Below, one piece after another: positions 5,578-30,900 of a stretch of 64,000 nt of DNA; within the stretch, counting starts at the first letter, position 1; each line of letters begins with the position of its first letter. The notes below the pieces were generated by a model. That model did no database searches. It worked only from the letters and a program-made list of their open reading frames with translations, and was not told the origin of the DNA. The position numbers and the translations under genes are program-made. Location: the NCBI RefSeq assembly GCF_013215345.1, contig NZ_JABSOV010000010.1, positions 1,564-65,563 on the forward strand. The letters are read 5' to 3'. This DNA is from Colwellia sp. GTDB taxonomy: Bacteria; Pseudomonadota; Gammaproteobacteria; Enterobacterales; Alteromonadaceae.

Positions 5578-6591
5578 ATGATGAAATTTCAAGGTAACCA
5601 TATTCTATCGGTATCACAATTTGACCGAGAGGCTATCGTAAAGATTTTACAAATTTCCGCACAAATGGCACCTTATGCGTCACGACAAAAACGTTGTCAT
5701 GTGCTCGAAGGTGCGATATTAAGTAACTTATTTTTTGAACCAAGTACACGTACCCGTGTTAGTTTTGGTACCGCCTTTAACTTACTCGGCGGTTTTGTCC
5801 GTGAAACCGTTGGTCAAGAAAACTCATCACTAAGTAAAGGTGAATCTTTATTTGATACCGCGCAAGTGATCAGCGGCTATTCCGATGTCATTGCCATGCG
5901 TCATCCACAAATGCACTCGGTAGATCAGTTTGCTCTAGGCAGTACAGTGCCAGTTATCAATGGTGGTGATGGTGCCAATGAACACCCTACTCAGGCTTTA
6001 CTAGATTTATTTACTATTCAGTCTGAAATGATGCACTTTAATAAAGGCTTAGATGATTTAAATATTGTTTTGATGGGTGACTTAAAACATGGTCGTACCG
6101 TACATTCATTATCCAAATTACTCAGTCTTTATGACAATGTTAAAGTGACTATGGTGGCACCCAAGGCCTTACAAATGCCTGACAGTGTAATTTCAACATT
6201 AACTGATGCCGGTCATGAAGTGATTTTGACAGAAACTATGGCGGGAAATTTATCTGCTGATGTTATCTATCAAACCAGAATTCAGCAAGAGCGCTTTGCC
6301 AGCAAAGATGAAGCAGAATTATATCGCGGACATTTCAGTTTGAATAAGAGTGTTTACCAAAAATATTGTCAAGAAAATACCGTTATCATGCATCCATTGC
6401 CGCGTGACTCTCGCCCTGAAGCCAATGAATTAGATACAGATTTAAATGACTTAGATAACCTAGCTATTTTTAGGCAAGCACAAAATGGTGTTTTAGTGCG
6501 TATGGCCTTATTTGCCTTAACGTTAGGTGTTGAAGATCAAATCACAAATTACGAAAAGCCGGTAAACTGGTTCACAAATAAAAATACTTAA
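5578..6591 (+). CDS. pyrB: Aspartate carbamoyltransferase catalytic subunit (no adjacent pyrI)
   Basis: FEPSTRTR, HPTQALLD and HPLPR motifs. Confidence 0.95.
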   Translation: MMKFQGNHILSVSQFDREAIVKILQISAQMAPYASRQKRCHVLEGAILSNLFFEPSTRTRVSFGTAFNLLGGFVRETVGQENSSLSKGESLFDTAQVISGYSDVIAMRHPQMHSVDQFALGSTVPVINGGDGANEHPTQALLDLFTIQSEMMHFNKGLDDLNIVLMGDLKHGRTVHSLSKLLSLYDNVKVTMVAPKALQMPDSVISTLTDAGHEVILTETMAGNLSADVIYQTRIQQERFASKDEAELYRGHFSLNKSVYQKYCQENTVIMHPLPRDSRPEANELDTDLNDLDNLAIFRQAQNGVLVRMALFALTLGVEDQITNYEKPVNWFTNKNT

Positions 6592-6634
6592 TTGCCATTA
6601 TGGAGCTAGCCTGAGCATGGGCTATCTCCTTGTA

Positions 6635-6709
6635 TTAACGTTAGGTGTTGAAGATCAAATCAGCAATTATGAAAAACCAGTAAACTGGTTGAAAAATAAA
6701 AATGCTTAG
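6635..6709 (+). repeat. Diverged direct copy of the last 75 bp of pyrB (6517-6591)
   Basis: 66/75 nt identical by manual alignment; encodes LTLGVEDQISNYEKPVNWLKNKNA* versus LTLGVEDQITNYEKPVNWFTNKNT*. Confidence 0.95.
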
Positions 6710-6753
6710 CGGCAATACTCCCTATAAGTAACGACTTTTAGAAGAAATATATT

Positions 6754-8037
6754 ATGAATAAATCAGAACAGTTATTTGAACAAGCTCAAAAAATAATTCC
6801 CGGTGGTGTTAACTCGCCAGTGCGTGCTTTCAATGGTGTTGGCGGAACTCCTTGCTTTATAAAACGTGCCCAAGGTGCTTATATTTATGATGCAGATGAT
6901 AAAGCTTACATTGACTATGTTGGCTCTTGGGGACCAATGATTTTAGGGCATAACCACCCAGCCATTCTTGATGCCGTTATTACTACGGCAAAAAATGGCT
7001 TGAGTTTTGGTGCGCCAACTGAGCTTGAAATTACCATGGCTGAAAAGGTTCGTGAGTTAGTGCCATCAATGGAATGTTTACGTATGGTTAGCTCTGGTAC
7101 TGAAGCTACCATGAGCGCTATCCGTTTAGCGCGTGGTTATACTGGCCGCGATAAAATATTAAAATTTGAAGGTTGTTACCATGGTCATGCTGACTCATTG
7201 TTAGTAAAAGCAGGCTCAGGTGCATTGACTATGGGTATACCTAATTCACCAGGTATTCCTGCTGACTTCGCTAAACACACACTAACGGTTAGCTATAACA
7301 ATATCGAAGAAGTAAAAGAGATTTTTGCTAAATACGCCGATGAGATAGCTTGTATTATTGTTGAACCTGTCGCCGGCAACATGAACTGTATTCCTCCAGT
7401 TGCTGGTTTTCTTGAAGGTTTACGTGCGGTGTGTGATCAGTACAGTAGCGTATTAATCTTTGATGAAGTAATGACTGGTTTTCGTGTCGCACTAGGTGGT
7501 GCACAAGCTCTTTATAACATTAAACCGGACCTTACCACTTTAGGTAAAGTTATTGGCGGCGGCATGCCTGTTGGCGCATTTGGTGGTAAACAAGAGATAA
7601 TGGACTATATCGCCCCAATTGGCCCAGTTTATCAAGCCGGTACTTTATCAGGTAACCCAATTGCTATGGCGGCAGGTTTAGCGTCATTAACTGAGCTAGC
7701 TCAAGGTGATAAACATCAACAATTAAGTGCTGCTACTGAAAAGCTAGCTATGGGCTTTAAAGCCGCCGCTGAACGTAATGGTGTTAGCTTAAGTGTAAAT
7801 TATGTTGGTGCCATGTTTGGCTTCTTCTTTACCGACGACAAAAACCCTATCACCAGCTACAAACAAGCAACTCAATGTGATGACGAGATGTTCAAACGTT
7901 TCTTCCACTTGATGCTAGCTGAAGGGATTTACTTAGCACCATCGTCTTATGAAACTGGATTTTTATCAACCGCACATAGCGATGACATTATAGAAAAAAC
8001 ATTAGTTGCTGTTGATAAGTGTTTCGCTCAGCTATAA
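6754..8037 (+). CDS. hemL: Glutamate-1-semialdehyde 2,1-aminomutase
   Basis: [24 protein letters not shown] lysine in LGKVIGGG. Confidence 0.97.
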
Positions 8038-8074
8038 CTAGCAATTTATTTTGTAAACTATAATTCTTGATATA

Positions 8075-8108
8075 AAAAAGCGACTTAAATTCATTTAAGT
8101 CGCTTTTT
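8075..8108. terminator. Bidirectional intrinsic terminator between hemL and the convergent gene
   Basis: AAAAAGCGACTTAAA...TTTAAGTCGCTTTTT. Confidence 0.85.
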
Positions 8109-8173
8109 CTTTAATAAATTGCTTCTATCTATTAAAGCAGCTCTTTTCAGTTCGGCTCCTGACAGCGTTGCCT

Positions 8174-8566
8174 TCAATTAGCCAATAAATCAAGCTCAGC
8201 TTGTAGCCAATCATAACCTTGCTGCCAGCCAAATTCTAATGCTGGAAATACTTTTAAATTCCAATCATCGATGGCTCGTAGCGACATGACATCGTCTATT
8301 ATTTTCTGGTCTTCATCTTTATAAACAATCACCGCAATAGCAACTAACTTCTCATGTGAAGCCATGGTCATTTTTGCCTCAAAAGTGTAGCTATAGCTAT
8401 TTACTTTATTGATCAGCAAGACAAAGTTATCATTCAGCTGCTGGCTAAGAAAATCATCGAATTCATCAAGCATCTCCATTGATACTTCAATGCCTTCAGC
8501 TATAATTAGTTCAACAATACAATCACTTAATAAATTTACCGTTGCAAAACTTAACTGCTGTTTCAT
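8174..8566 (-). CDS. Small hypothetical protein, probably STAS/SEC14 (SpoIIAA-like)
   Basis: 130-aa ORF with a plausible RBS; family call from general resemblance only. Confidence 0.55.
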   Translation of the reverse strand: MKQQLSFATVNLLSDCIVELIIAEGIEVSMEMLDEFDDFLSQQLNDNFVLLINKVNSYSYTFEAKMTMASHEKLVAIAVIVYKDEDQKIIDDVMSLRAIDDWNLKVFPALEFGWQQGYDWLQAELDLLAN

Positions 8567-8665
8567 GGTTACACCCCGCCTACTACTATTTTATTACTCT
8601 ATAGTAAAGCTACGATTTTTACCAATAACCTGCTCATTTATTGTACACGCACCCTAAAATAGCCA

Positions 8666-9898
8666 CTATAAAAACTGATCAAATAATTGTACGGTGACCA
8701 TTTCACCTGCCGCGACCTTACCTTGTTCACTTGGCAGAATAATATAACAGTTAGCCTTAGCTAAACTAGATAAGATACCTGAACCCTGCGCGCCAGTAGA
8801 ACTAACGATATTTTCACCTTGTGAGTTAATCGCTAAGACACCTCGTTGAAAATCCATGCGTCCTGGAGATTTACGCAAGTCAGTACTGCATTTCACTGTT
8901 AAATGCGTACGCTTTAAAGGTTGAGCATTTTGCATTTTAGTTAAGGCAACCAAGGCTAATTGATGAAAAGTTACCAAGGCTGAAACTGGGTTACCTGGCA
9001 AACCAAAAAATAGGCTGTTGGCTAGCTTGCCAAAAGCAAAGGGCTTACCTGGTTTCATTGCTATTTTCCAAAAAGCTATTTCACCCAATTCATCTAGCAC
9101 AGTTTTAGTGTAATCCGCATCACCTACCGAAACACCGCCAGAAGAAATTACTGCATCAGCTTGCTCATCGGCACTAATAAAGGCTGATTTTATTGCTGAA
9201 AAATCATCTTCAATAATACCAAAATCAATGACATCAACATGTAGTTTTTGCAGCATGGCAGCTAAAACAAAACTGTTAGACTCATAAATATCACCAACTC
9301 GTAATGTTTGTCCCGGTAATTTTAATTCATCACCGGTAGCGATCAAAGCTACCTTTAATTTACGATAGACTTTAACTTCAGCCACACCCAATGAAGCAAG
9401 CACACCAATATCAACCGCCGTTAATTTTTTGCCTAATTGCAATACTTGTTGACCGAGTTGAATATCTTCCCCGGCATTACGGACATGGCAGCCAAAACTT
9501 TTATCTTGTAAAAAAGTAATTTGTTCTCCATCCGCGCTAACATTTTCTTGCATCTCTACTGAATCACAACAGTCAGGCATTTTAGCCCCGGTCATAATAC
9601 GAATGCATTCTCCAGCCTGACATACACCTTGAAAAGGTGCTCCTGCCATAGAGCGGCCAACAAGGGTAAGGATTTTATTAGCCGTAAAACTCCCAAGAGC
9701 AAAAGCATAACCATCCATTGCAGAGTTATCATGAGGTGGTACATTTAATGGGCTAGCAATATCTTGTGCTAAAACATAGTGCAAGGCTTGGTCAATGGCT
9801 AAGGTTAATGTTTCGGTGACAGGTGAAACTTGCGCTAGCATATTCGCTAAAGCTTGTTCAAAAGGTAAAAGCCCTGGAGCTGAGCAACAATCAGACAT
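8666..9898 (-). CDS. moeA: Molybdopterin molybdotransferase MoeA
   Basis: NSAMDGYA, IRIMTGA, SSGGVSVGDAD, GLPGNPVS. Confidence 0.96.
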   Translation of the reverse strand: MSDCCSAPGLLPFEQALANMLAQVSPVTETLTLAIDQALHYVLAQDIASPLNVPPHDNSAMDGYAFALGSFTANKILTLVGRSMAGAPFQGVCQAGECIRIMTGAKMPDCCDSVEMQENVSADGEQITFLQDKSFGCHVRNAGEDIQLGQQVLQLGKKLTAVDIGVLASLGVAEVKVYRKLKVALIATGDELKLPGQTLRVGDIYESNSFVLAAMLQKLHVDVIDFGIIEDDFSAIKSAFISADEQADAVISSGGVSVGDADYTKTVLDELGEIAFWKIAMKPGKPFAFGKLANSLFFGLPGNPVSALVTFHQLALVALTKMQNAQPLKRTHLTVKCSTDLRKSPGRMDFQRGVLAINSQGENIVSSTGAQGSGILSSLAKANCYIILPSEQGKVAAGEMVTVQLFDQFL

Positions 9899-10046
9899 AA
9901 AAAACTCGCTTAAATACGTTAATACATGAACATCACTCTAAACTAGGTAAATCTACCAGCCTGATTAGAAAGATATTGGTTAAATCCGTTATAGATAGTA
10001 TCGCTTAAGTACCCACAAAATTAATAGTGATAAAACCGCAACTTTA

Positions 10047-10088
10047 TTGATTTTGATCAATATTAAGGTCGGCTAAAAAAATTATTAT
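10047..10088 (+). promoter_or_regulatory. FNR box with class II promoter for the moaA operon
   Basis: Perfect TTGAT-TTTG-ATCAA at 10047-10060; a -10 TATTAT at 10083-10088 lies at the spacing expected for a site centred at -41.5. Confidence 0.75.
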
Positions 10089-10177
10089 CACGTCAGCAAA
10101 GTAATATATGCCATCCGCCTGAACTTGCATCTTAAAGTAGAGCAGGTATATACTAAATATTGAACAGAATTTTATTT

Positions 10178-10350
10178 ATAACACCGAGCTGTCATAACTA
10201 CCGTGGCTTTCTTTTTAGGCTATATCAAGCCTACTTATTGTAAACCATCATGTTGTGATATGCCGTAACTAAAGCAATGTATTTATTGCACTTTTAGTTA
10301 CCAGGGTTAACAAGGAAACGCGTTAGCCTCCCTACATTTGGAAAGGTGAC
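10178..10350 (+). ncRNA. Moco riboswitch (Moco RNA motif) in the moaA leader
   Basis: 3' part CCAGGG...GGAAAC...GCCTCCCTACATTTGGAAAGGTG directly before the ATG matches the gammaproteobacterial moaA leader. Internal hairpin GTAACTAAA...TTTTAGTTAC. 5' boundary approximate. Confidence 0.85.
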
Positions 10351-11322
10351 ATGTTAACAGACAACTATGGCCGTAGGTTTTCTTACCTGCGCTTATCGAT
10401 TACTGACGTGTGCAATTTTAGCTGCACTTACTGCTTACCTGACGGTTATCAGTGCGATCAGCCACGTGATTTCTTATCACTATGTGAAATCAAACGTTTA
10501 ACCAAAGCTTTCGCCGAGCTAGGCACAGAGAAGATCCGCATTACTGGTGGTGAACCTGCCTTGCGTAAAGACTTACCTGAAATAATTCAAATTTGTAAAG
10601 AAACACCAGGTATCAAGAAAGTTGCCATAACCAGTAATGGTTTTAAATTACCTGAGCACTTACCTCAATGGTTGGATGCCGGCATTGATGCCATTAATAT
10701 CAGTATCGATAGTTTAGATCCACGCCAATTTCTCGCGATAACCGGGCACAATAAACTTAAGACCATTCTCAAGGGTATTGATATGGGCTTAGCCGATGGC
10801 AGAGCAACCATTAAAGTGAATACGGTATTAATGCGTGAGCATAGCGGCAGAGATATTCAAAGCTACCTTGACTGGATAAAAGATACCCCGATAACGTTAC
10901 GTTTTATTGAGTTAATGCAGACCGGTGATAACAAGGCATTTTTTGATGCACAACATGTACAAGGCTCACGCATTAAACAAAACTTAATCCTCGATGGTTG
11001 GCTGCCTGTTATTCAGAATAAATCAGCGGGTCCTGCCCAAGAATTTTATCATCCTGACTATCAAGGTAAAGTCGGTTTGATCATGCCCTACTCGAAGGAC
11101 TTTTGTAATAGCTGTAATCGCTTACGAATTAGCTCAAGTGGCAAGTTGCACTTGTGCCTATTTGGTGATGAAGGTTTGTCACTACGTGAACAATTGCAAA
11201 GTGATGATATAGTGCCAATACAACAGAAAATCGTATCGTTACTCGGTGACAAAAAAGCCACCCATTTTTTACATGAAAAGCTTACTGGTGCTACGAAACA
11301 CCTTGCCATGCTTGGGGGTTAG
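10351..11322 (+). CDS. moaA: GTP 3',8-cyclase MoaA
   Basis: CNFSCTYC radical-SAM motif, C-terminal FCNSCNR...C cluster, terminal GG. Confidence 0.97.
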   Translation: MLTDNYGRRFSYLRLSITDVCNFSCTYCLPDGYQCDQPRDFLSLCEIKRLTKAFAELGTEKIRITGGEPALRKDLPEIIQICKETPGIKKVAITSNGFKLPEHLPQWLDAGIDAINISIDSLDPRQFLAITGHNKLKTILKGIDMGLADGRATIKVNTVLMREHSGRDIQSYLDWIKDTPITLRFIELMQTGDNKAFFDAQHVQGSRIKQNLILDGWLPVIQNKSAGPAQEFYHPDYQGKVGLIMPYSKDFCNSCNRLRISSSGKLHLCLFGDEGLSLREQLQSDDIVPIQQKIVSLLGDKKATHFLHEKLTGATKHLAMLGG

Positions 11323-11324
11323 TT

Positions 11325-11990
11325 ATGAACCATCAAGCTATTGATTGTTTAGGTGTAGTACTTGCTGGCGGTTTATCTTCTCGCATGGGACAAGATAAGG
11401 CACAACTAACACGACTGAAAATTGGTGCCGATATCTCGGTAAAACCCGTAAGTAACATGCTAGATTTTTCCAAGCAGCTGCTTAGCGATGCCGGCATAAA
11501 AGATATCGTTGTTAGTGGTGATAACTATCAAATTCCAGACCTAGTACCATGCTCTGGCCCTGTTGGTGGAATTTATAGTGTTTTAGCTCATTACCCTGAA
11601 CACTTACAGCCGAAAGCATTATTATTATTACCCGTTGATTTACCCTTAATGACAGCCGCAGATTTAGCTAAACTGCGGCTGAAAGGTGAACTGAGTCACA
11701 AAGCGACTTTTTTCAGTGATGGTCAAAAACAAGCGCATCATATTCCGTTATACTTGCCCAACAATGCTTTTTTGCAACTGTTTTTAGCTCAGGCATTCCA
11801 GCGAGAAAGCTTGCTCGCCCTCGGCAATGAAAAGAGTAATAGAAGCGGTCATAAAAATAATAAAAATGGTCCTTCAGTTAGAGCCCTGCTAGAACAAGTG
11901 CCTCACCAAGCCATTACTAGTCCAAAAAATCAGGCGCTATTCAATACCAATACGCCAGAGCAGTGGCAACAAGCAAAAAAACAATTTTAG
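11325..11990 (+). CDS. mobA: Molybdenum cofactor guanylyltransferase MobA
   Basis: VLAGGLSSRMGQDKA, GPVGGI, PVDLP, NTNTPEQW. Confidence 0.9.
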   Translation: MNHQAIDCLGVVLAGGLSSRMGQDKAQLTRLKIGADISVKPVSNMLDFSKQLLSDAGIKDIVVSGDNYQIPDLVPCSGPVGGIYSVLAHYPEHLQPKALLLLPVDLPLMTAADLAKLRLKGELSHKATFFSDGQKQAHHIPLYLPNNAFLQLFLAQAFQRESLLALGNEKSNRSGHKNNKNGPSVRALLEQVPHQAITSPKNQALFNTNTPEQWQQAKKQF

Positions 11991-12032
11991 AGCGAACGTA
12001 TTGGTTAGCAATACACTCACTGTCAAGAGAAT

Positions 12033-12062
12033 CAATGGCAGCAAGCACAACAACAGTTTTAG
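12033..12062 (+). repeat. Diverged direct copy of the last 30 bp of mobA (11961-11990)
   Basis: 25/30 nt identical; QWQQAQQQF* versus QWQQAKKQF*. Confidence 0.75.
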
Positions 12063-12147
12063 TCTAAGCATATTGAGTAGCAATACGCTGCAATATGAGT
12101 AGCAAAAAATTTAATTTAATCTAAAAGATTTAGTAAAGGATAAACCT

Positions 12148-12723
12148 ATGTCAGCACATGGCGGCAACACTTTCGTTCCCTTAAATATCGCCGTTTTAAC
12201 GGTTTCAGATACACGCACCGAAGCGAACGATACTTCGGGGCAAGCGCTAGTTGAGCGTTTAACCCAAGCAGGTCACAACTTAGCTGATAAAGCCATTGTT
12301 ATAGATGACGTTTATCAATTGCGTGCGCAAGTTTCCAAATGGATTGCCGATGATACTATTCATGCCATTATTTCTACCGGTGGTACTGGCTTTACCGATC
12401 GTGATAATACGCCTGAAGCATTAACACCATTATTTGATAAGGCCGTAGAGGGATTTGGTGAAGTTTTTCGTCACGTGTCCTTAATTGAAATAGGCACCTC
12501 TACTATTCAATCTCGTGCATTTGGCGGCATCGCCAACAAAACGGTAGTCTTGTGTGTTCCAGGCTCAACTAATGCTTGTAAAACGGCTTGGGATAAAGTG
12601 ATTAAAGAGCAGCTCGATGCTAGTCATCGTCCTTGTAATTTTGTCCCACACTTAAATATCACGGCAGAGCCGTCAGCGAGTAAAGAGTCTTCAATTGTTG
12701 AAAAATGTGGGACTCGCGGTTAA
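12148..12723 (+). CDS. moaB: Molybdenum cofactor biosynthesis protein MoaB
   Basis: [31 protein letters not shown]. Confidence 0.93.
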
Positions 12724-13244
12724 TGACTAACTCTACATCAAAAAATAGCACGCCTGAGGCAGCACCTGAGCTAAGCCATCTGAACCAGCAAGGTGAAGCT
12801 AACATGGTCGATGTCACGGAAAAAGCCATGACATCGCGTACGGCAACCGCGCAAGGTTTTATTAAAATGAATCGTGCGACTTTTGAATTAATTACTACAG
12901 GTAAACATAAAAAGGGTGATGTGTTTGCTGTTGCTCGTATTGCTGGCATTCAAGCGGCGAAAAAGTGCAGCGACTTGATTCCTTTATGTCATCCATTGAT
13001 GCTAACTAAGGTACAAGTAGACTTCACCCTTGATAGTCAAAACAACCAAGTACAAGTGAATAGCTTATGTCGCTTAACAGGACAAACAGGCGTAGAGATG
13101 GAAGCATTAACGGCTGTTTCTGTTGCTTGTTTAACCTTGTTTGATATGTGTAAAGCCGCCGATCCTGCCATGCAGATTAACGGTATAGAAGTATTAACAA
13201 AAGAAGGCGGTAAATCGGGCCATTGGCAAACACCATCAACCTAA
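12723..13244 (+). CDS. moaC: Cyclic pyranopterin monophosphate synthase MoaC
   Basis: LSHL...[31 protein letters not shown] at 12723 overlaps the moaB stop. Confidence 0.95.
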
Positions 13245-13273
13245 TTTAACGAGAACTAATAGAGAGAATTAGT

Positions 13274-13522
13274 ATGATTAAAATTGTTTTTTTTGCCGCT
13301 TTAAGAGAGCAGCTAGATTGTGCTGAACTGTCTTTAAACGCCGATGATGTAAAAACAGTCAATGACGTTAAACAGCGCTTAAGTGATAAAAATTCCCAGT
13401 GGCGACAAACCTTTAGCAATGCCTCACTGTTATCGGCAGTGAACCATGACATGGTGGATGGCAGTCATTTAGTGAAATCTGGTGATGAAGTTGCCTTTTT
13501 CCCTCCTGTGACCGGCGGATAA
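13274..13522 (+). CDS. moaD: Molybdopterin synthase sulfur carrier MoaD
   Basis: FFAALRE and C-terminal AFFPPVTGG. Confidence 0.95.
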   Translation: MIKIVFFAALREQLDCAELSLNADDVKTVNDVKQRLSDKNSQWRQTFSNASLLSAVNHDMVDGSHLVKSGDEVAFFPPVTGG

Positions 13523-13525
13523 CAG

Positions 13526-14008
13526 ATGATAAGCCAAGACGTTTTGAAAGAGATATCCATCCAAACTAAGGATTTTAGTTTAGCCGATGAAGTTGCCTTA
13601 CTTGAAAAAGACAACTTAACCGATGGCGCTGTGGTGACCTTCACCGGCAGAGTTAGAAATAACAATAATGGTAATAGCGTAACTAGCTTAACGCTAGAGC
13701 ATTACCCAGGTATGACTGAAAAATCATTAGCTAAAATTATCAACCAAGCTAAAGAGCAATGGCGGATAGGACGAGTTAAAGTCATTCATCGCATTGGCGA
13801 ACTGCATATAGGTGAGCAAATTGTTTTTGTGGGCGTCACCAGCAAACATAGACAAGATGCTTTTGCTGCCAATGAATTCATCATGGATTATTTGAAAGTT
13901 AAAGCGCCTTTTTGGAAGAAAGAGCAAATTACCGAGGCTGGAAAAACTTCAGAAAACTGGTTGGATGCTAAAACCAGTGATACTGACAAAGCAGAGCTGT
14001 GGAGCTAG
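13526..14008 (+). CDS. moaE: Molybdopterin synthase catalytic subunit MoaE
   Basis: GAVVTFTGRVR, LEHYPGMT, HRIGEL, APFWKKE. Confidence 0.95.
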   Translation: MISQDVLKEISIQTKDFSLADEVALLEKDNLTDGAVVTFTGRVRNNNNGNSVTSLTLEHYPGMTEKSLAKIINQAKEQWRIGRVKVIHRIGELHIGEQIVFVGVTSKHRQDAFAANEFIMDYLKVKAPFWKKEQITEAGKTSENWLDAKTSDTDKAELWS

Positions 14009-14009
14009 C

Positions 14010-14858
14010 GTGCTACGTTTTCTTTTATACAGCTTGCTATCTTGCTGTTTTGTCATCAGCTTACTTACCAGTGTTAGTAGCAATGCACAACCAAGCGCGG
14101 ATAAAGGCAAGCAAGCTTCCAGCACACCTTTACGCATTGCCGTTGCAGCTAACTTCACCCCAGTATTAAAAGTATTACTCGAAGACTTCCGCAAACAAAC
14201 AGGTATAAAAACCCAGATAATTAGTGGTGCTAGTGGCGCGATTTTTTTGCAAATTAAACACGGCGCGCCTTATGATATTTTCCTCAGTGCTGATAGTCGC
14301 CGTCCAAAGCAACTTGAGCAAGCCGGTTTTACGCTGAAAAATAGTCGTAAAACCTATGCTATTGGTCAGCTAGCATTATATTCCGCCACTAAAAATTCAC
14401 TTGAACCATTATCTCTTGAACAATTACCTCTTAACCTGTTAAAAAGTCCGCCGGCACGCTTGGCCATTGCTAATCCCGACATTGCTCCTTATGGCAAAGC
14501 AGCCAAAGAAGCGCTAAACCATATGGGTTTGTGGCAGGCTTATCAAAATAGATTAATAAAGGGTATTAATATCGGGCAAACCTTTGCCCAAGTACGTAGC
14601 AAAGCGGTTAGCAGTGGTATCGTTGCCAATAGCCAATTAGTGATAAATAATTTATCAGGGGTGCTTATCCCAACAAGTTATCATCAAGCGATTGAGCAAC
14701 AGTTAATTATTATTCGCGCCAGTAAGCAGCAAGTAGCCGCGAAAAAATTAAGTGACTATTTACTCTCAGCCAAGAGCCAAGCTACTATCGTTAGTTATGG
14801 TTACGCCGCAATGACTCTAACGAATAACAGCGAGCTAATGATAGATCATGAATTCTGA
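14010..14858 (+). CDS. modA: Molybdate ABC transporter substrate-binding protein
   Basis: AVAANF, SGASG, DIFLSAD, ANPDIAPYG. GTG at 14010 with GGAG RBS chosen over the track start at 13965. Confidence 0.92.
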   Translation: MLRFLLYSLLSCCFVISLLTSVSSNAQPSADKGKQASSTPLRIAVAANFTPVLKVLLEDFRKQTGIKTQIISGASGAIFLQIKHGAPYDIFLSADSRRPKQLEQAGFTLKNSRKTYAIGQLALYSATKNSLEPLSLEQLPLNLLKSPPARLAIANPDIAPYGKAAKEALNHMGLWQAYQNRLIKGINIGQTFAQVRSKAVSSGIVANSQLVINNLSGVLIPTSYHQAIEQQLIIIRASKQQVAAKKLSDYLLSAKSQATIVSYGYAAMTLTNNSELMIDHEF

Positions 14859-15567
14859 CTTACAAGCACTGATCACCACCTTAGAAATGGCGGCATTAAC
14901 CACGATAATTTTACTGATTATTGGTACGCCACTGGCTTGGTATCTAGCCAAAATGACCAGCCGTTTTAAAGTTATCATTGAAGCTGTGGTCGCTTTACCG
15001 CTAGTGTTACCACCAACGGTACTAGGTTTTTATTTACTCATTGCTTTTTCCCCTGAATACTTACCCGGACAACTTTGGCAGCAAGCAACGGGTCAACAGC
15101 TGGCCTTTAGTTTTTCCGCCATCGTTATTGGCTCAGTTTTATACTCACTGCCTTTTGTCGTTCAGCCACTGCAAAAAGCCTTTGAACAATTAGGTGATTC
15201 GCTACTCGAAGCGGGCGCTTTACTTGGCGCGGGGCCAATCGATAGATTTTTTTCTATTGTGCTGCCATTAACAAAAGCCAGCTTTATTACCGCCGCCAGT
15301 TTAGGTTTTGCTCATACGGTCGGCGAATTTGGAGTCATATTAATGATTGGTGGCAATATACCCGGTGAAACACGGGTACTTTCCATTGCGCTATTTGACC
15401 ATGTTGAGGCTTTTGATTATGCCAGAGCACATCTGCTTTCCATCAGTTTATTAATAACTTCTATGGTGCTATTAGCCGCTATCTATTGGTTAAATTTACC
15501 GAAAAAAAACAGCAGTAAGAATTTAATGGTTAACACTGTGCGAGAAGAGAAAAGTTCTCATGAATAA
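14848..15567 (+). CDS. modB: Molybdate ABC transporter permease
   Basis: LPLVLPPTVLGFYLL, FAHTVGEFG, GGNIPGET. Confidence 0.95.
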   Translation: MNSDLQALITTLEMAALTTIILLIIGTPLAWYLAKMTSRFKVIIEAVVALPLVLPPTVLGFYLLIAFSPEYLPGQLWQQATGQQLAFSFSAIVIGSVLYSLPFVVQPLQKAFEQLGDSLLEAGALLGAGPIDRFFSIVLPLTKASFITAASLGFAHTVGEFGVILMIGGNIPGETRVLSIALFDHVEAFDYARAHLLSISLLITSMVLLAAIYWLNLPKKNSSKNLMVNTVREEKSSHE

Positions 15568-16744
15568 TTATCCTATAAGTCACTCTCCTGTAAATAATGC
15601 TGCTTTGAATAGTCGGTCTAACAATAAAACACCACAACTCGACCTTAATATTAGTATTGAATATCAGCAATTTGATTTAGCCATTGAGCTAGCAATCCCC
15701 TTAATAGGCATCACTGGAATTTTTGGCCACTCGGCATCAGGTAAATCAACATTATTGCGCGCCATTGCCGGTTTAGAAACATCGTTGCGTGGTGAGATAA
15801 CCTTAACCGATACAAGCTTGCCCAGTAGAACCTTTGTCAGTAGAACTTTAGTCAACAGTGAGCGAGGTTTGTATCTCAAACCTGAGCAGCGCCAAGTAGG
15901 CTTAGTGTTTCAAAATAGTCGTTTGTTTCCACATTTAACTGTGCGGGGTAACTTAGAATATGCGGTCAAACGTTGTAAAAATAACCGCCTGTCATTAGAT
16001 GAAGTAATTAAACTCACCGAGTTAGGCGCCTTGCTTGATCATCGAGTCAATCAACTCTCCGGTGGTCAACAGCAAAGAGTCGCCTTAGCCAGAGCAATAC
16101 TAGCCGAGCCGAAATTATTACTACTCGATGAGCCATTAAGCGCCCTTGATCGACACAGTAAAACCCAATTATTAAAAATGATGCTTAATATTCAAAAACA
16201 GCTGAACTTACCTATGTTATACGTTAGTCACTCTTTAGATGAATTACAGCAAGTTTGTGACAACTTACTCGTGCTAGCTCAAGGTAAGGTGGTCAATTTT
16301 GGTAATATTCACCAAGTTATTCATCAGCTCAACAATGACAATAATAGTGATATTATTCATCAACAAACCAGTTTATCACTGCCCATTAAAACCTTTAATA
16401 ATGGACATGGCTTAACGGCTTTAGCGTTAAATGCCCACGAAGACATTTTTATGGTTTGCGATCAGACATTTGAGCAGCAAACTCATTTACGTTGCTTTAT
16501 TTTGGCTAGCGATATTAGTATTACCCTAACAGAGCCAACTAATAGCTCTATCGTTAATCACCTCTTTGGCACGATAAAACAAATAAACCATCAGCAGAAT
16601 AATGTGCTGTTGACGGTTCATTGTGGCTCACAAGACTTTTTTGTCACTATCAGTGCTTTTTCTCAACAAAAGTTATCACTAACCATCAGACAACAGGTAT
16701 ATTTGCAGTTTAAAGCAAGTGCTGTGCGTACTTTTATCCATTAA
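15560..16744 (+). CDS. modC: Molybdate ABC transporter ATPase
   Basis: Walker A GHSASGKST, LSGGQQQR, C-terminal TOBE-like domain. Confidence 0.93.
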   Translation: MNNYPISHSPVNNAALNSRSNNKTPQLDLNISIEYQQFDLAIELAIPLIGITGIFGHSASGKSTLLRAIAGLETSLRGEITLTDTSLPSRTFVSRTLVNSERGLYLKPEQRQVGLVFQNSRLFPHLTVRGNLEYAVKRCKNNRLSLDEVIKLTELGALLDHRVNQLSGGQQQRVALARAILAEPKLLLLDEPLSALDRHSKTQLLKMMLNIQKQLNLPMLYVSHSLDELQQVCDNLLVLAQGKVVNFGNIHQVIHQLNNDNNSDIIHQQTSLSLPIKTFNNGHGLTALALNAHEDIFMVCDQTFEQQTHLRCFILASDISITLTEPTNSSIVNHLFGTIKQINHQQNNVLLTVHCGSQDFFVTISAFSQQKLSLTIRQQVYLQFKASAVRTFIH

Positions 16745-16780
16745 AGCCAATAACTAATAGCCAATAAACTAGGAACACAC

Positions 16781-17548
16781 GTGTTAAGTAATCAAGAGCA
16801 ACTTAAATACTCCCGCCAAATCATGTTGGATAAAATTGGCGAGCAAGGACAATTAGCACTGCGTAACGCTAAGGTGCTTATTTTAGGCGTCGGCGGCTTA
16901 GGCAATCCCGCCAGTTTATATTTAGCTGCCGCCGGTGTTGGCACCCTTTATCTTGCCGATGGCGATTGTATCGAGCTGAGTAACTTACCCAGACAGATCC
17001 TCTTTAGTGAAAGTAATATTAATGAAAATAAAGCTGACGTCGCCGCAGAGAAACTACAGCAACAATTTCCTGATGTAACTATTGAAGCTATTGATGAAAT
17101 GCTCGATGCAGAGTTATGTGAATATTATCTGCCACAAGTCGATTTAGTGCTCGATTGCTCTGACAACATTCAAACGCGTTACTTGATCAACCAAGCCTGT
17201 GTGCAACATAAAGTGCCTCTGATAGTGGGTGCTGCAACGGGCTTTGATGGCCAACAGCTCACCATAGACCCCCGAGATGACAGCAGTGCTTGTTACCACT
17301 GCCTTTTTCCTGCCAGTGAAAAAGCGCCGGCCACTAATTGTCAAACTGTTGGTATAATTGGCCCTGTATTAGCCATGATTGCCGGGATGCAAAGCTTACA
17401 GGCCATTAAACTGTTAACAGGAAATAAAGTGCAGCTTAACCAACTGAACTTACTCGATGGTCTAGCCAATCAATGGCAACAATTTAACATGAAAAAACAA
17501 AAAAGTTGCGTGGTATGTGGTACAAGCGATAAAACTATTAACGGCTAA
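16781..17548 (+). CDS. moeB: Molybdopterin-synthase adenylyltransferase MoeB (ThiF/MoeB family)
   Basis: RYSRQI-like KYSRQI, GVGGLG, SNLPRQ, two CxxC Zn motifs; Moco context. Confidence 0.9.
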   Translation: MLSNQEQLKYSRQIMLDKIGEQGQLALRNAKVLILGVGGLGNPASLYLAAAGVGTLYLADGDCIELSNLPRQILFSESNINENKADVAAEKLQQQFPDVTIEAIDEMLDAELCEYYLPQVDLVLDCSDNIQTRYLINQACVQHKVPLIVGAATGFDGQQLTIDPRDDSSACYHCLFPASEKAPATNCQTVGIIGPVLAMIAGMQSLQAIKLLTGNKVQLNQLNLLDGLANQWQQFNMKKQKSCVVCGTSDKTING

Positions 17549-17559
17549 TACCAGCTAAG

Positions 17560-17670
17560 AAAGTACAGCTTAACCAACTGAACTTACTCGATGGTCTAGC
17601 TAATCAATGGCAGCAATTTAACATGAAAAGCAAGCCAGTTGCACCGTGTGTGGTTCAAATAGTAGTTGAG
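17560..17670 (+). repeat. Diverged direct copy of the moeB 3' end (from 17426)
   Basis: First 25 codons differ at 4 positions, all synonymous; CxxC is retained (CTVC versus CVVC); ends in its own TGA. Confidence 0.95.
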
Positions 17671-17691
17671 CTAACCAACAAGATACCGCGC

Positions 17692-18258
17692 TTAATAACT
17701 ACCTAAAGTAAATTGGCACTTAGCACTGGTAATTATTAATTCAGTGCCGTTTTTTGTCTGTTGTTCTTTGGCAATAGCAGCCCATTGGTAATAGACATTA
17801 CGATGAACTTTTGCAGTTAAATTTCGTCGTACTGTCACATACAAGTCGCCACTTTCATTAACAATTAATGGGTGCTGTTTATCAAGGGTAAACTCATCAC
17901 CTAAGTTAGTGGTAACTTGCATAACAGTCTCTTTTTCATCTAGCCAGCGCCACAGGGTAAGGACAAAAGGAGCGTCATCCACCTGAATTTTCACTTTCTC
18001 AACCGGTGTCACTAAGAAATACTCGGCCATATTTTTAGATAAGTCGTCACTTACATCTTTGCTTACATCTTTAATAAGTACAGAAGCAAACATTTTTACC
18101 AGTGCTAAACGCTTAAAAATAGTGCCGTTGTAATACCAGTCGCCATTCGCTTTAATCTGTATATCAATTTCACCACAATAGGGCGGGTTCCATGACTCGA
18201 CTGGCGGTAATGATTTTTTACTGCCCGCAAGCTGAGCTGAGATTTTATCTAATGACAT
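17692..18258 (-). CDS. DUF1285 family protein
   Basis: PPVESWNPPYCGEIDIQIKANGDWYYNGT...YFLVTPVEKVKIQVDDAPF. Confidence 0.85.
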   Translation of the reverse strand: MSLDKISAQLAGSKKSLPPVESWNPPYCGEIDIQIKANGDWYYNGTIFKRLALVKMFASVLIKDVSKDVSDDLSKNMAEYFLVTPVEKVKIQVDDAPFVLTLWRWLDEKETVMQVTTNLGDEFTLDKQHPLIVNESGDLYVTVRRNLTAKVHRNVYYQWAAIAKEQQTKNGTELIITSAKCQFTLGSY

Positions 18259-30318: not shown

Positions 30319-30395
30319 GGTGGCTATAGCTCAGTTGGTAGAGCCCCGGATTGTGATTCCGGTTGTCGAGGGTTCAAGTCCCTTTAGCCACCCCA
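30319..30395 (+). tRNA. hisR: tRNA-His (GUG), including G-1 and encoded CCA
   Basis: GGTGGCTATAGCTCAGTTGGTAGAGCCCCGGATTGTGATTCCGGTTGTCGAGGGTTCAAGTCCCTTTAGCCACCCCA, 77 nt. Confidence 0.98.
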
Positions 30396-30900
30396 TTCTT
30401 TTCTTCCTTTGTAAAACTTATACTCTAAACAATCACGAGTGATTCCATTTTCGATTTACCGTGAATTCAAGTCCCTTTAGACAGCCCATCTTTTACTATT
30501 CCCATAAAACATTTAGAACTAGAAAGAATCACCAATGATTCCGTTATTCACTTACCGTGGATTCAAGTTCCTTTAGCCACCCCATCTTTTCTTCCTGTTT
30601 TAAACTTATACTCTAGACAATCACGAGTGATTCCATTATCGCTTTACCGTGGATTGAAGTCTTATTAGCCACGCCATTTTTTATCTCTATTTCAAATATA
30701 TTCCTGCTTAATTAAATCACGGGTGATTCCACTATTACTCTGCCGTGGATTGAATTTCCTTTAGCTACGCCCATTCTTTTATTATTCTCGTAAAACATTT
30801 AGAACTCGAAAAAATCACCAATAATGCCATTATTCATTTCCGTAGATTCAAGCTCCTTTAACTAGCCAGCCTTTTATATTCTTTGAAAAGCTCTAAACAA
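30396..30900 (+). repeat. Degenerate tandem array (period 92-97 bp), each unit carrying a tRNA-His 3'-end copy
   Basis: TT(C/G)AA(G/T) anchors at 30373 (tRNA), 30466, 30562, 30654, 30750, 30847; recurrent AATCAC-NN-(G/A)TGATTCC...TTACCGTGGA. Confidence 0.92.

Follow-up and report, generated by a model that had tools for sequence, protein, structure and literature searches.

In a stretch of 64,000 nucleotides from Colwellia sp. (RefSeq assembly GCF_013215345.1, contig NZ_JABSOV010000010.1, positions 1,564 to 65,563; the window hereafter), three housekeeping genes, pyrB, a mobA-like gene, and moeB, are each followed by a partial copy, or echo, of their own 3' end. These echoes are probably the distal units of locus-specific minisatellites that span the stop codon and that are tolerated, shared among species, resized, and made mosaic by ordinary recombination. 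The window lies on one contig of a 4.24 Mb draft genome of 257 contigs, which is 95.5% complete with 2.2% contamination. This genome belongs to a deep-sea Colwellia clade, and its closest relative is the metagenome-assembled genome (MAG) DT_22, with 99% identity in pyrB. Alignments confirm the three copies that an original prediction, made from the letters of the window, had reported. The genes and units concerned are as follows, with open reading frame abbreviated as ORF.

5578..6591, + strand: pyrB (aspartate carbamoyltransferase), intact, ending within array unit 1 (NCBIfam NF006046, 613 bits; ORF list)
6491..6608, + strand: pyrB unit 1, 118 bp, with about 100 nt of the gene end, the stop, and about 13-17 nt beyond (register; spacer collinearity)
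6609..6726, + strand: pyrB unit 2 (echo), decayed at 6609-6634, with a well-kept core at 6635-6709 ending in TAG (core 66/74 identical; unit found with a homologous spacer, at 2-3 copies, in 9 other Colwellia genomes)
11325..11990, + strand: mobA-like gene (MobA-like NTP transferase; Pfam PF12804, 1.8e-16; weak NCBIfam MobA match)
11961..12032, + strand: mobA unit 1, 72 bp, with the final 27 nt, the stop, a hairpin GTATTG..CAATAC, and a tail (unit alignment)
12033..12104, + strand: mobA unit 2 (echo), 45/72 identical to unit 1
12705..13244, + strand: moaC, with a single-copy end in the window (profile match; 96-bp array at this site in relatives)
16781..17548, + strand: moeB, with its 8 final codons (TSDKTING*) supplied by the beginning of unit 2 in a shifted frame (NCBIfam MoeB-family matches; junction analysis)
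17398..17521, + strand: moeB unit 1, ending directly past the CxxC-G motif, short of the original stop (unit alignment)
17522..17669, + strand: moeB unit 2 (echo), with a 9-nt insertion, a core at 17560-17630 almost identical to unit 1, and a diverged tail (unit alignment)

The terminal 75 nt of pyrB (6517-6591) are repeated 43 nt on at 6635-6709, where 66 of 74 positions are identical and the stop has changed from TAA to TAG. The spacer belongs to the repeat. In each of the eight genomes with an array, its 3' 30 nt align in one and the same register to the gene segment that precedes the core (shuffle P <0.0005 in Colwellia sp. TT2012, 0.004 in C. marinimaniae, and 0.006 in C. piezophila). The 118-bp unit with its homologous spacer exists in two copies in DT_22, C. 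piezophila, and two MAGs, and in three copies in TT2012, C. marinimaniae MTCD1, 12G3, and 75C3. ALOHA_DT_125, GAB14E, C. demingiae, ND2E, and sister taxa of 75C3 have a single unit, and these are interleaved on the pyrB tree. Within 12G3, 75C3, and TT2012, the internal units hardly differ from one another. Terminal units have their best match in the one functional copy of a sister species; for example, unit 3 of 75C3 matches that of the ERR599125 bin at 70 of 72 positions and its own parent at 66 of 72. A small ORF in the pyrB echo (ATG GGC TAT..., 31 aa) was rejected as a candidate gene, as its ATG is ATA in DT_22 and its frame is broken in C. piezophila.

The terminal 30 nt of the mobA-like gene are repeated 42 nt on at 12033-12062 (25/30 identical). 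The true repeat is the 72-bp unit, and the downstream GTATTG..CAATAC hairpin is copied along with the gene end. Seven units of 71 bp are found in TT2012, and two units each in DT_22 and C. piezophila. In C. marinimaniae, the mobA-moaB spacer has two mobA units split by an insert of about 190 bp that is absent elsewhere, and the last unit lies beyond this insert. At moaC, a 96-bp 3'-end array is present in three copies in TT2012, four in C. marinimaniae, and two in C. piezophila. The proximal copies of these moaC arrays end in ...HWQTPK*, and the native tail is found in the last copy only.

The best NCBIfam match of moeB is NF004281 (248.8 bits, slightly below the 266-bit cut-off). Positions 17415-17525 are repeated at 17549-17658 with 94 of 110 positions identical and one 1-nt gap. 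While this copy is as originally described, the 11-nt spacer reported between the two is itself a part of unit 2, and the reported in-frame stop depends on a 1-nt deletion: only by this deletion in an A-run does the TGA of the echo (17667-17669) come into frame, the shifted frame reading ...ASCTVCGSNSS*. The parent-derived frame has no stop in the echo. The present end of the gene is derived from the junction, since TSDKTING* is the beginning of unit 2, a copy of ...LQAIKLLT..., read in a different frame. The moeB unit is about 130 bp long, and the array is also found in three relatives, with copy numbers from 1 to at least 2. The 9-nt insertion, ccagctaag, is common to the echoes of the window and of C. 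piezophila, in which unit 2 is longer and more legible. In C. piezophila, the moeB array is cut by the end of a contig and more pieces of it are on another contig; copy numbers there are minimum values.

How common such echoes are was estimated by aligning the last 150 nt of each ATG-initiated ORF of at least 100 aa (n=3150) locally to the next 350 nt. Scores of at least 16 were obtained for 20 of the 3150 ORFs and for none when the downstream regions were permuted (control maximum 15), which excludes chance. One of the 20 is a tRNA artefact. The remaining 19 genes with a 3'-end echo bear out the expected genome-wide occurrence. Tandem Repeats Finder (TRF) alone overlooks most of them, as unit 2 has decayed too far in its upstream part, and local alignment was therefore used. 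A mirror scan of 5' ends gave 4 hits against 1 in its control, so that 3' ends outnumber 5' ends by 19:4 (p=0.003). Across the genome, periods range from 21 to 225 bp, mostly 70-210, and echo loci are clustered, with five pairs no more than 15 kb apart where 0.86 are expected (P=0.004). Locally, four genes of the pyrB-moeB stretch are array-bearing in one species or another. The genes with echoes are ordinary ones, including prfB, rnt, proA, ffh, hutI, an ilvI-like gene, and those for a flagellin, a methyl-accepting chemotaxis protein (MCP), a response regulator, GspM, and a YchJ-like protein. Ten were assigned by Pfam; ffh, hutI, ilvI-like, and MCP were named from sequence alone, without a domain search.

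The same scan over 1.2 Mb of a distant congener gave 5 positives among 999 ORFs. Over 1.2 Mb of an out-group from the same order it gave 5 among 1062, three of which are neighbouring paralogues, leaving about 2/1062. The rate of 19/3150 is not significantly different from that of the congener (p=0.82) or of the out-group (p=0.13), and the suggestion of an undescribed mode of allele exchange peculiar to this lineage is therefore not upheld. In the out-group, a gene for a 484-aa membrane protein is clearly followed by a stop-spanning tandem duplication of 147 bp (score 67.5), on the - strand at about 974552-976006, showing that the phenomenon is not confined to Colwellia.

When the second units of all 19 loci were searched against the genome by blastn, only adjacent copies were matched. 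Each unit is thus locus-specific, and these are not repetitive extragenic palindromic (REP) sequences, miniature inverted-repeat transposable elements (MITEs), or dispersed elements of the mycobacterial interspersed repetitive unit (MIRU) type. With unit 2 taken from the parent stop to one period onward and aligned to the last period of the gene, the spacer proved to correspond, in decayed form, to the part of the gene immediately before the core at the YchJ-like, MCP, proA (2.6 units), prfB, and response-regulator loci, at a tetratricopeptide repeat (TPR) gene on contig C177, and at mobA and moeB. The tandem structure, and the sharing of arrays with homologous spacers, exclude a separate illegitimate event at each locus. 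An Rfam search found no RNA family in the units (tRNA-His and a molybdenum cofactor (Moco) riboswitch are the sole families found). Neither was a terminator predicted in them, and their hairpins are not significantly more stable than those of shuffled sequences (fold z -1.8, -0.6, and -2.2); insulating or terminator hairpins in the spacers were rejected on these grounds. A diversity-generating retroelement was dropped by inspection, as the differences are not specific to adenines and the loci concerned are many.

Copy number also differs among relatives at rnt, at proA, and at the C177 TPR gene. The 118-bp array of prfB has two units in DT_22 and C. piezophila and three in TT2012 and C. marinimaniae, and insertions in its decayed part, including one of 7 nt, are shared. 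The upstream part of the prfB echo is decayed. ALOHA_DT_125 lacks this array and has a single unit, with flanks 98-99% identical to those of the genome studied here. About 170 nt 3' of the prfB stop there is also a palindrome of about 35 nt, GTCATTCCCGAAGTGTCTTGTCGGGAATCC, which matches dozens of sites in all five Colwellia genomes searched. This palindrome is REP-like and dispersed, and has no relation to the echoes. At the flagellin-like gene, the 66-nt spacer before the echo holds three tandem copies of the 14-nt motif gcgatgccttaatt, nested in a 208-bp unit.

The differences between echo and parent, said originally to be concentrated at synonymous positions, do show such a bias when pooled. 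Over the 19 loci there are 67.8 synonymous and 81.2 non-synonymous differences, giving a ratio of non-synonymous to synonymous rates (dN/dS) of 0.26 (bootstrap interval 0.175-0.38), and the differences are distributed over the three codon positions as 43:28:78 (chi-square p=2e-6). In pyrB alone the bias is weak (3.5 synonymous and 4.5 non-synonymous differences). The same 150-nt ends compared between orthologues have a dN/dS of 0.064, and a functional parent paired with a neutrally decaying echo is expected to have about 0.53. The observed value lies between the two, implying that roughly half of the divergence arose under coding constraint. The low dN/dS suggests that allele-like divergence came, likeliest of all, from ordinary homologous recombination with tracts ending inside the repeat.

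Mosaic tracts of this kind are found at several loci. The window is 100% identical to ALOHA_DT_125 from 17301 to about 17610 (310 bp) in a background of about 92%. moeB unit 1 and the junction lie within this tract, which extends through the core of unit 2 and stops inside the echo; past its end, identity is 84-90%. The proximal unit and the junction are the same in the window and ALOHA_DT_125, with DT_22 differing only slightly. In the echo, each of the three genomes has its own version of one CxxC tail, in frame in ALOHA_DT_125 and DT_22 and carrying the 1-nt deletion in the window. The tail in the window, SCTVCGSNSS, resembles the functional MoeB ends of C. marinimaniae, TT2012, and GAB14E. 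At the response-regulator locus, the single functional end of ALOHA_DT_125 equals the parent copy in our source genome over its 5' part and the echo in our source genome over its last 20 nt; between the two genomes, the downstream flank is 98-99% identical and the gene body 92%. The expectation that echoes would match functional ends of other strains therefore holds at some loci, namely for the moeB tail and for the response-regulator tail. Flank-anchored recombination, together with unequal crossing-over or conversion, accounts for the moeB tract, the response-regulator mosaic, and the affinities of the terminal pyrB units. Identity between the source genome and DT_22 is 99% in pyrB (5578-6500) and 92% over mobA-moeB (11300-17900), only 5 kb away. 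This contrast marks a mosaic of recombination tracts between close lineages.

We propose the following course of events. A segment of about 70-225 bp containing the last 10-45 codons of a gene and its stop would be duplicated head to tail, by microhomology or by slippage (at moeB, exceptionally, the duplicated segment would stop a few codons short of the stop). Such a duplication would be tolerated as its proximal unit still completes the ORF, while duplications within genes would break them. The arrays would be neutral and would date back far enough for several deep-sea Colwellia species to have them in common. Unequal recombination or slippage would resize them to between 1 and 7 units and partly homogenise the units. 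Homologous-recombination tracts that run from the flank into a repeat unit would leave neighbouring units with different functional alleles, and this allelic divergence, superimposed on neutral decay, would produce the synonymous bias. Remodelled C-termini (MoeB here and MoaC in relatives) and longer intergenic spacers would be side effects.

Several observations do not fit this proposal easily. Ancient neutral arrays should diverge far more from the parent than the 10-16% observed. Such low divergence suggests, from a few loci, that persistence of the arrays requires gene conversion or recombinational refreshment. The 3':5' asymmetry and the clustering of loci go beyond what a simple tolerance filter would give. 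Microhomology is not demonstrable at the junctions, which have been eroded by divergence; a 2-nt 'ag' at the YchJ-like junction is the sole candidate. With the 3' excess, the clustering, and the lasting similarity of the cores unexplained, there is a small chance of a mechanistic or selected cause. One such cause, which we regard as improbable, is a 3'-biased duplication process, associated for example with transcript ends or with replication-transcription encounters, whose products are retained for C-terminus remodelling (MoeB, MoaC) or for tuning of read-through (mobA-moaB, prfB-lysS).

Selection could also act on the echoes themselves. They would then be kept as C-terminal cassettes that can be swapped in, as was originally suggested, or as cis elements (terminator or insulator hairpins, small RNAs from 3' untranslated regions, or small ORFs) tuning operons such as mobA-moaB and prfB-lysS. 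The persistence of arrays across species and the 85-96% identity of the stop-proximal cores to the parent are consistent with this. So are the single copies of ALOHA_DT_125 at prfB and the response regulator, which look like chimeras of parent and echo, and the changes made by junctions to the MoeB and MoaC termini. In mycobacteria, a correlation has been reported between an intergenic variable number tandem repeat (VNTR) and how the gene downstream of it is expressed (PMC2734929). Yet echoes are often frameshifted, interrupted by indels, or decayed (moeB here, pyrB in C. piezophila, and the upstream part of prfB), which argues against silent cassettes; the start codon of the pyrB-echo peptide is lost in the closest relative, DT_22; and the units have no Rfam match, no predicted terminator, and fold z-scores of only -0.6 to -2.2. 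Many close relatives are without arrays and show no visible compensation. No recombinase or partner gene is found nearby, where the neighbours are hemL, moaB, and an unrelated convergent ORF. Maintenance of the echoes by selection is therefore unlikely.

Less probable still is the explanation put forward at the outset, that each echo is the scar of a one-sided recombination, homologous within the gene and illegitimate downstream, in which a foreign 3' end displaced the native one. It draws on the moeB and response-regulator echo tails, which stand beside the native flank and serve as functional ends in relatives, and on the pooled dN/dS, which is well under the neutral-decay expectation. The allele-like character of the echo is retained in the minisatellite reading, as an echo may correspond to an allele that was functional formerly or is functional elsewhere. 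The illegitimate joint is not retained: the spacers contain upstream sequence of the gene itself, in decayed form, and not foreign flank, arrays have 3-7 units in some genomes, and homologous spacers and indels (the 9-nt insertion in moeB and the 7-nt insertion in prfB) are shared across species. The mosaic tracts are explained by two-sided homologous recombination. It might also be asked whether two strain alleles of a mixed sample were concatenated during assembly, given that the source is a 257-contig draft with 2.2% contamination. The arrays, however, recur in independently assembled genomes, namely those of cultured C. marinimaniae MTCD1, TT2012, C. piezophila ATCC BAA-637, 12G3, and 75C3, and in a MAG with a 1.3-Mb contig. 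An assembly artefact, which had been named as a possible refutation of the echoes, is thus effectively refuted for pyrB, mobA, moeB, and prfB.

The window has another 3'-end duplication, at tRNA-His, which had been counted with the echoes. It consists of one gene and a tandem array of decayed 3' parts:

30320..30395, + strand: tRNA-His (GTG), one gene (ARAGORN; Rfam RF00005, 67.9 bits)
30373..30860, + strand: array of 4-5 decayed copies of the tRNA-His 3' part (TRF period 96, 5.2 copies; 188-bp higher-order period)

The units copy tRNA positions from about 30 or 45 to 76, and unit-tRNA alignments score 15-24 against a shuffled maximum of 15.5. While the duplication itself is confirmed, two readings of its origin can be given. 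Besides a slippage-type minisatellite, the 3' parts of this array could be attachment (att) remnants of successive genomic-island integrations, a possibility that we consider doubtful but well above those discussed for the protein-coding loci. Integrase att sites usually reach from the anticodon loop or T-arm of a tRNA to its 3' end, which is the stretch that the units copy. In ALOHA_DT_125 (contig C257:5500-28500), about 21 kb separates tRNA-His from an array remnant and the downstream gene, implying that the tRNA-His site is an insertion hotspot. The 21-kb insert encodes a redoxin, a MarR regulator, an SLT transglycosylase, and an FHA-domain protein. Against att remnants, no integrase domain was found among its 10 largest ORFs (of 15 of at least 150 aa), the 96/188-bp higher-order tandem periodicity is typical of unequal crossing-over, and no ORF lies between the units in the source genome.

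Several known systems resemble these arrays in part. Mycobacterial VNTR/MIRU loci are used for typing, and VNTR3239, for example, is in the rnc-fpg spacer (PMC2734929). Like bacterial minisatellites or VNTR loci, the Colwellia arrays have head-to-tail units of tens to a few hundred bp between genes, with copy numbers that vary between relatives and that would expand or contract by slippage or unequal recombination. Their collinearity extends through the entire unit and takes in the apparent spacer, as seen in unit alignments and at pyrB in 8 genomes, and copy number varies at the same locus (pyrB 1-3, mobA 2-7, prfB 1-3, and moaC 1-4). While MIRU form a dispersed family with related units at many loci, the Colwellia units are locus-specific and come from the 3' end of the adjacent gene. 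They are also diverged (76-96% identical) and not near-identical as in VNTR/MIRU. Microhomology-mediated tandem duplication has been shown in fission yeast as fresh, identical, subclonal duplications (Dan et al. 2021, PNAS, PMC8639346). Such a process is a plausible origin, and a plausible route of reversion, for units of this size, with only gene-preserving duplications surviving. Unlike those of fission yeast, the Colwellia junctions are old, and the 'ag' at the YchJ-like junction is the sole hint of microhomology.

At loci for contact-dependent inhibition (CDI), Rhs, and other polymorphic toxins, orphan C-terminal cassettes have a parent-homologous stretch and an alternative tail and are exchangeable by recombination. 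The moeB echo is similar in having a parent-homologous stretch and a different coding tail 3' of the intact gene. In contrast to those cassettes, the Colwellia echoes follow housekeeping genes, have tails of 4-10 codons that are often frameshifted, and have no immunity gene or toxin domain; no sign of selected switching was seen. Scars of homology-facilitated illegitimate recombination are known from natural transformation in Acinetobacter and pneumococcus. Such an event would likewise leave the native 3' end displaced beside an imported allele, but it predicts a foreign spacer and two copies only, while in Colwellia the spacers come from the gene itself and up to 7 units are found in an array. 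No named description of stop-codon-spanning duplications in bacteria was found in the literature searched, and repeats are not mentioned in a comparative-genomics paper on Colwellia.

These arrays call for some caution in annotation and in population genetics, as stop-spanning duplications give pseudo-3' ends resembling allelic cassettes. They can silently alter the last residues of a protein, and they lengthen intergenic spacers. Piezophilic Colwellia have been reported to have lower coding density (PMC7542103). Arrays also break short-read assemblies, as in the C. piezophila contig mentioned above, and they record homologous recombination between Colwellia lineages at a fine scale. Should the 3' bias and the clustering reflect a mechanism and not filtering by survival, they would indicate that gene ends are subject to a local mutational process.

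The identities of pyrB, hemL, moaA-E, modC, and moeB are confirmed by profile matches. Directly upstream of moaA, at 10170-10364 of the window, there is a Moco riboswitch (Rfam RF01055, 62 bits), as expected for this operon.

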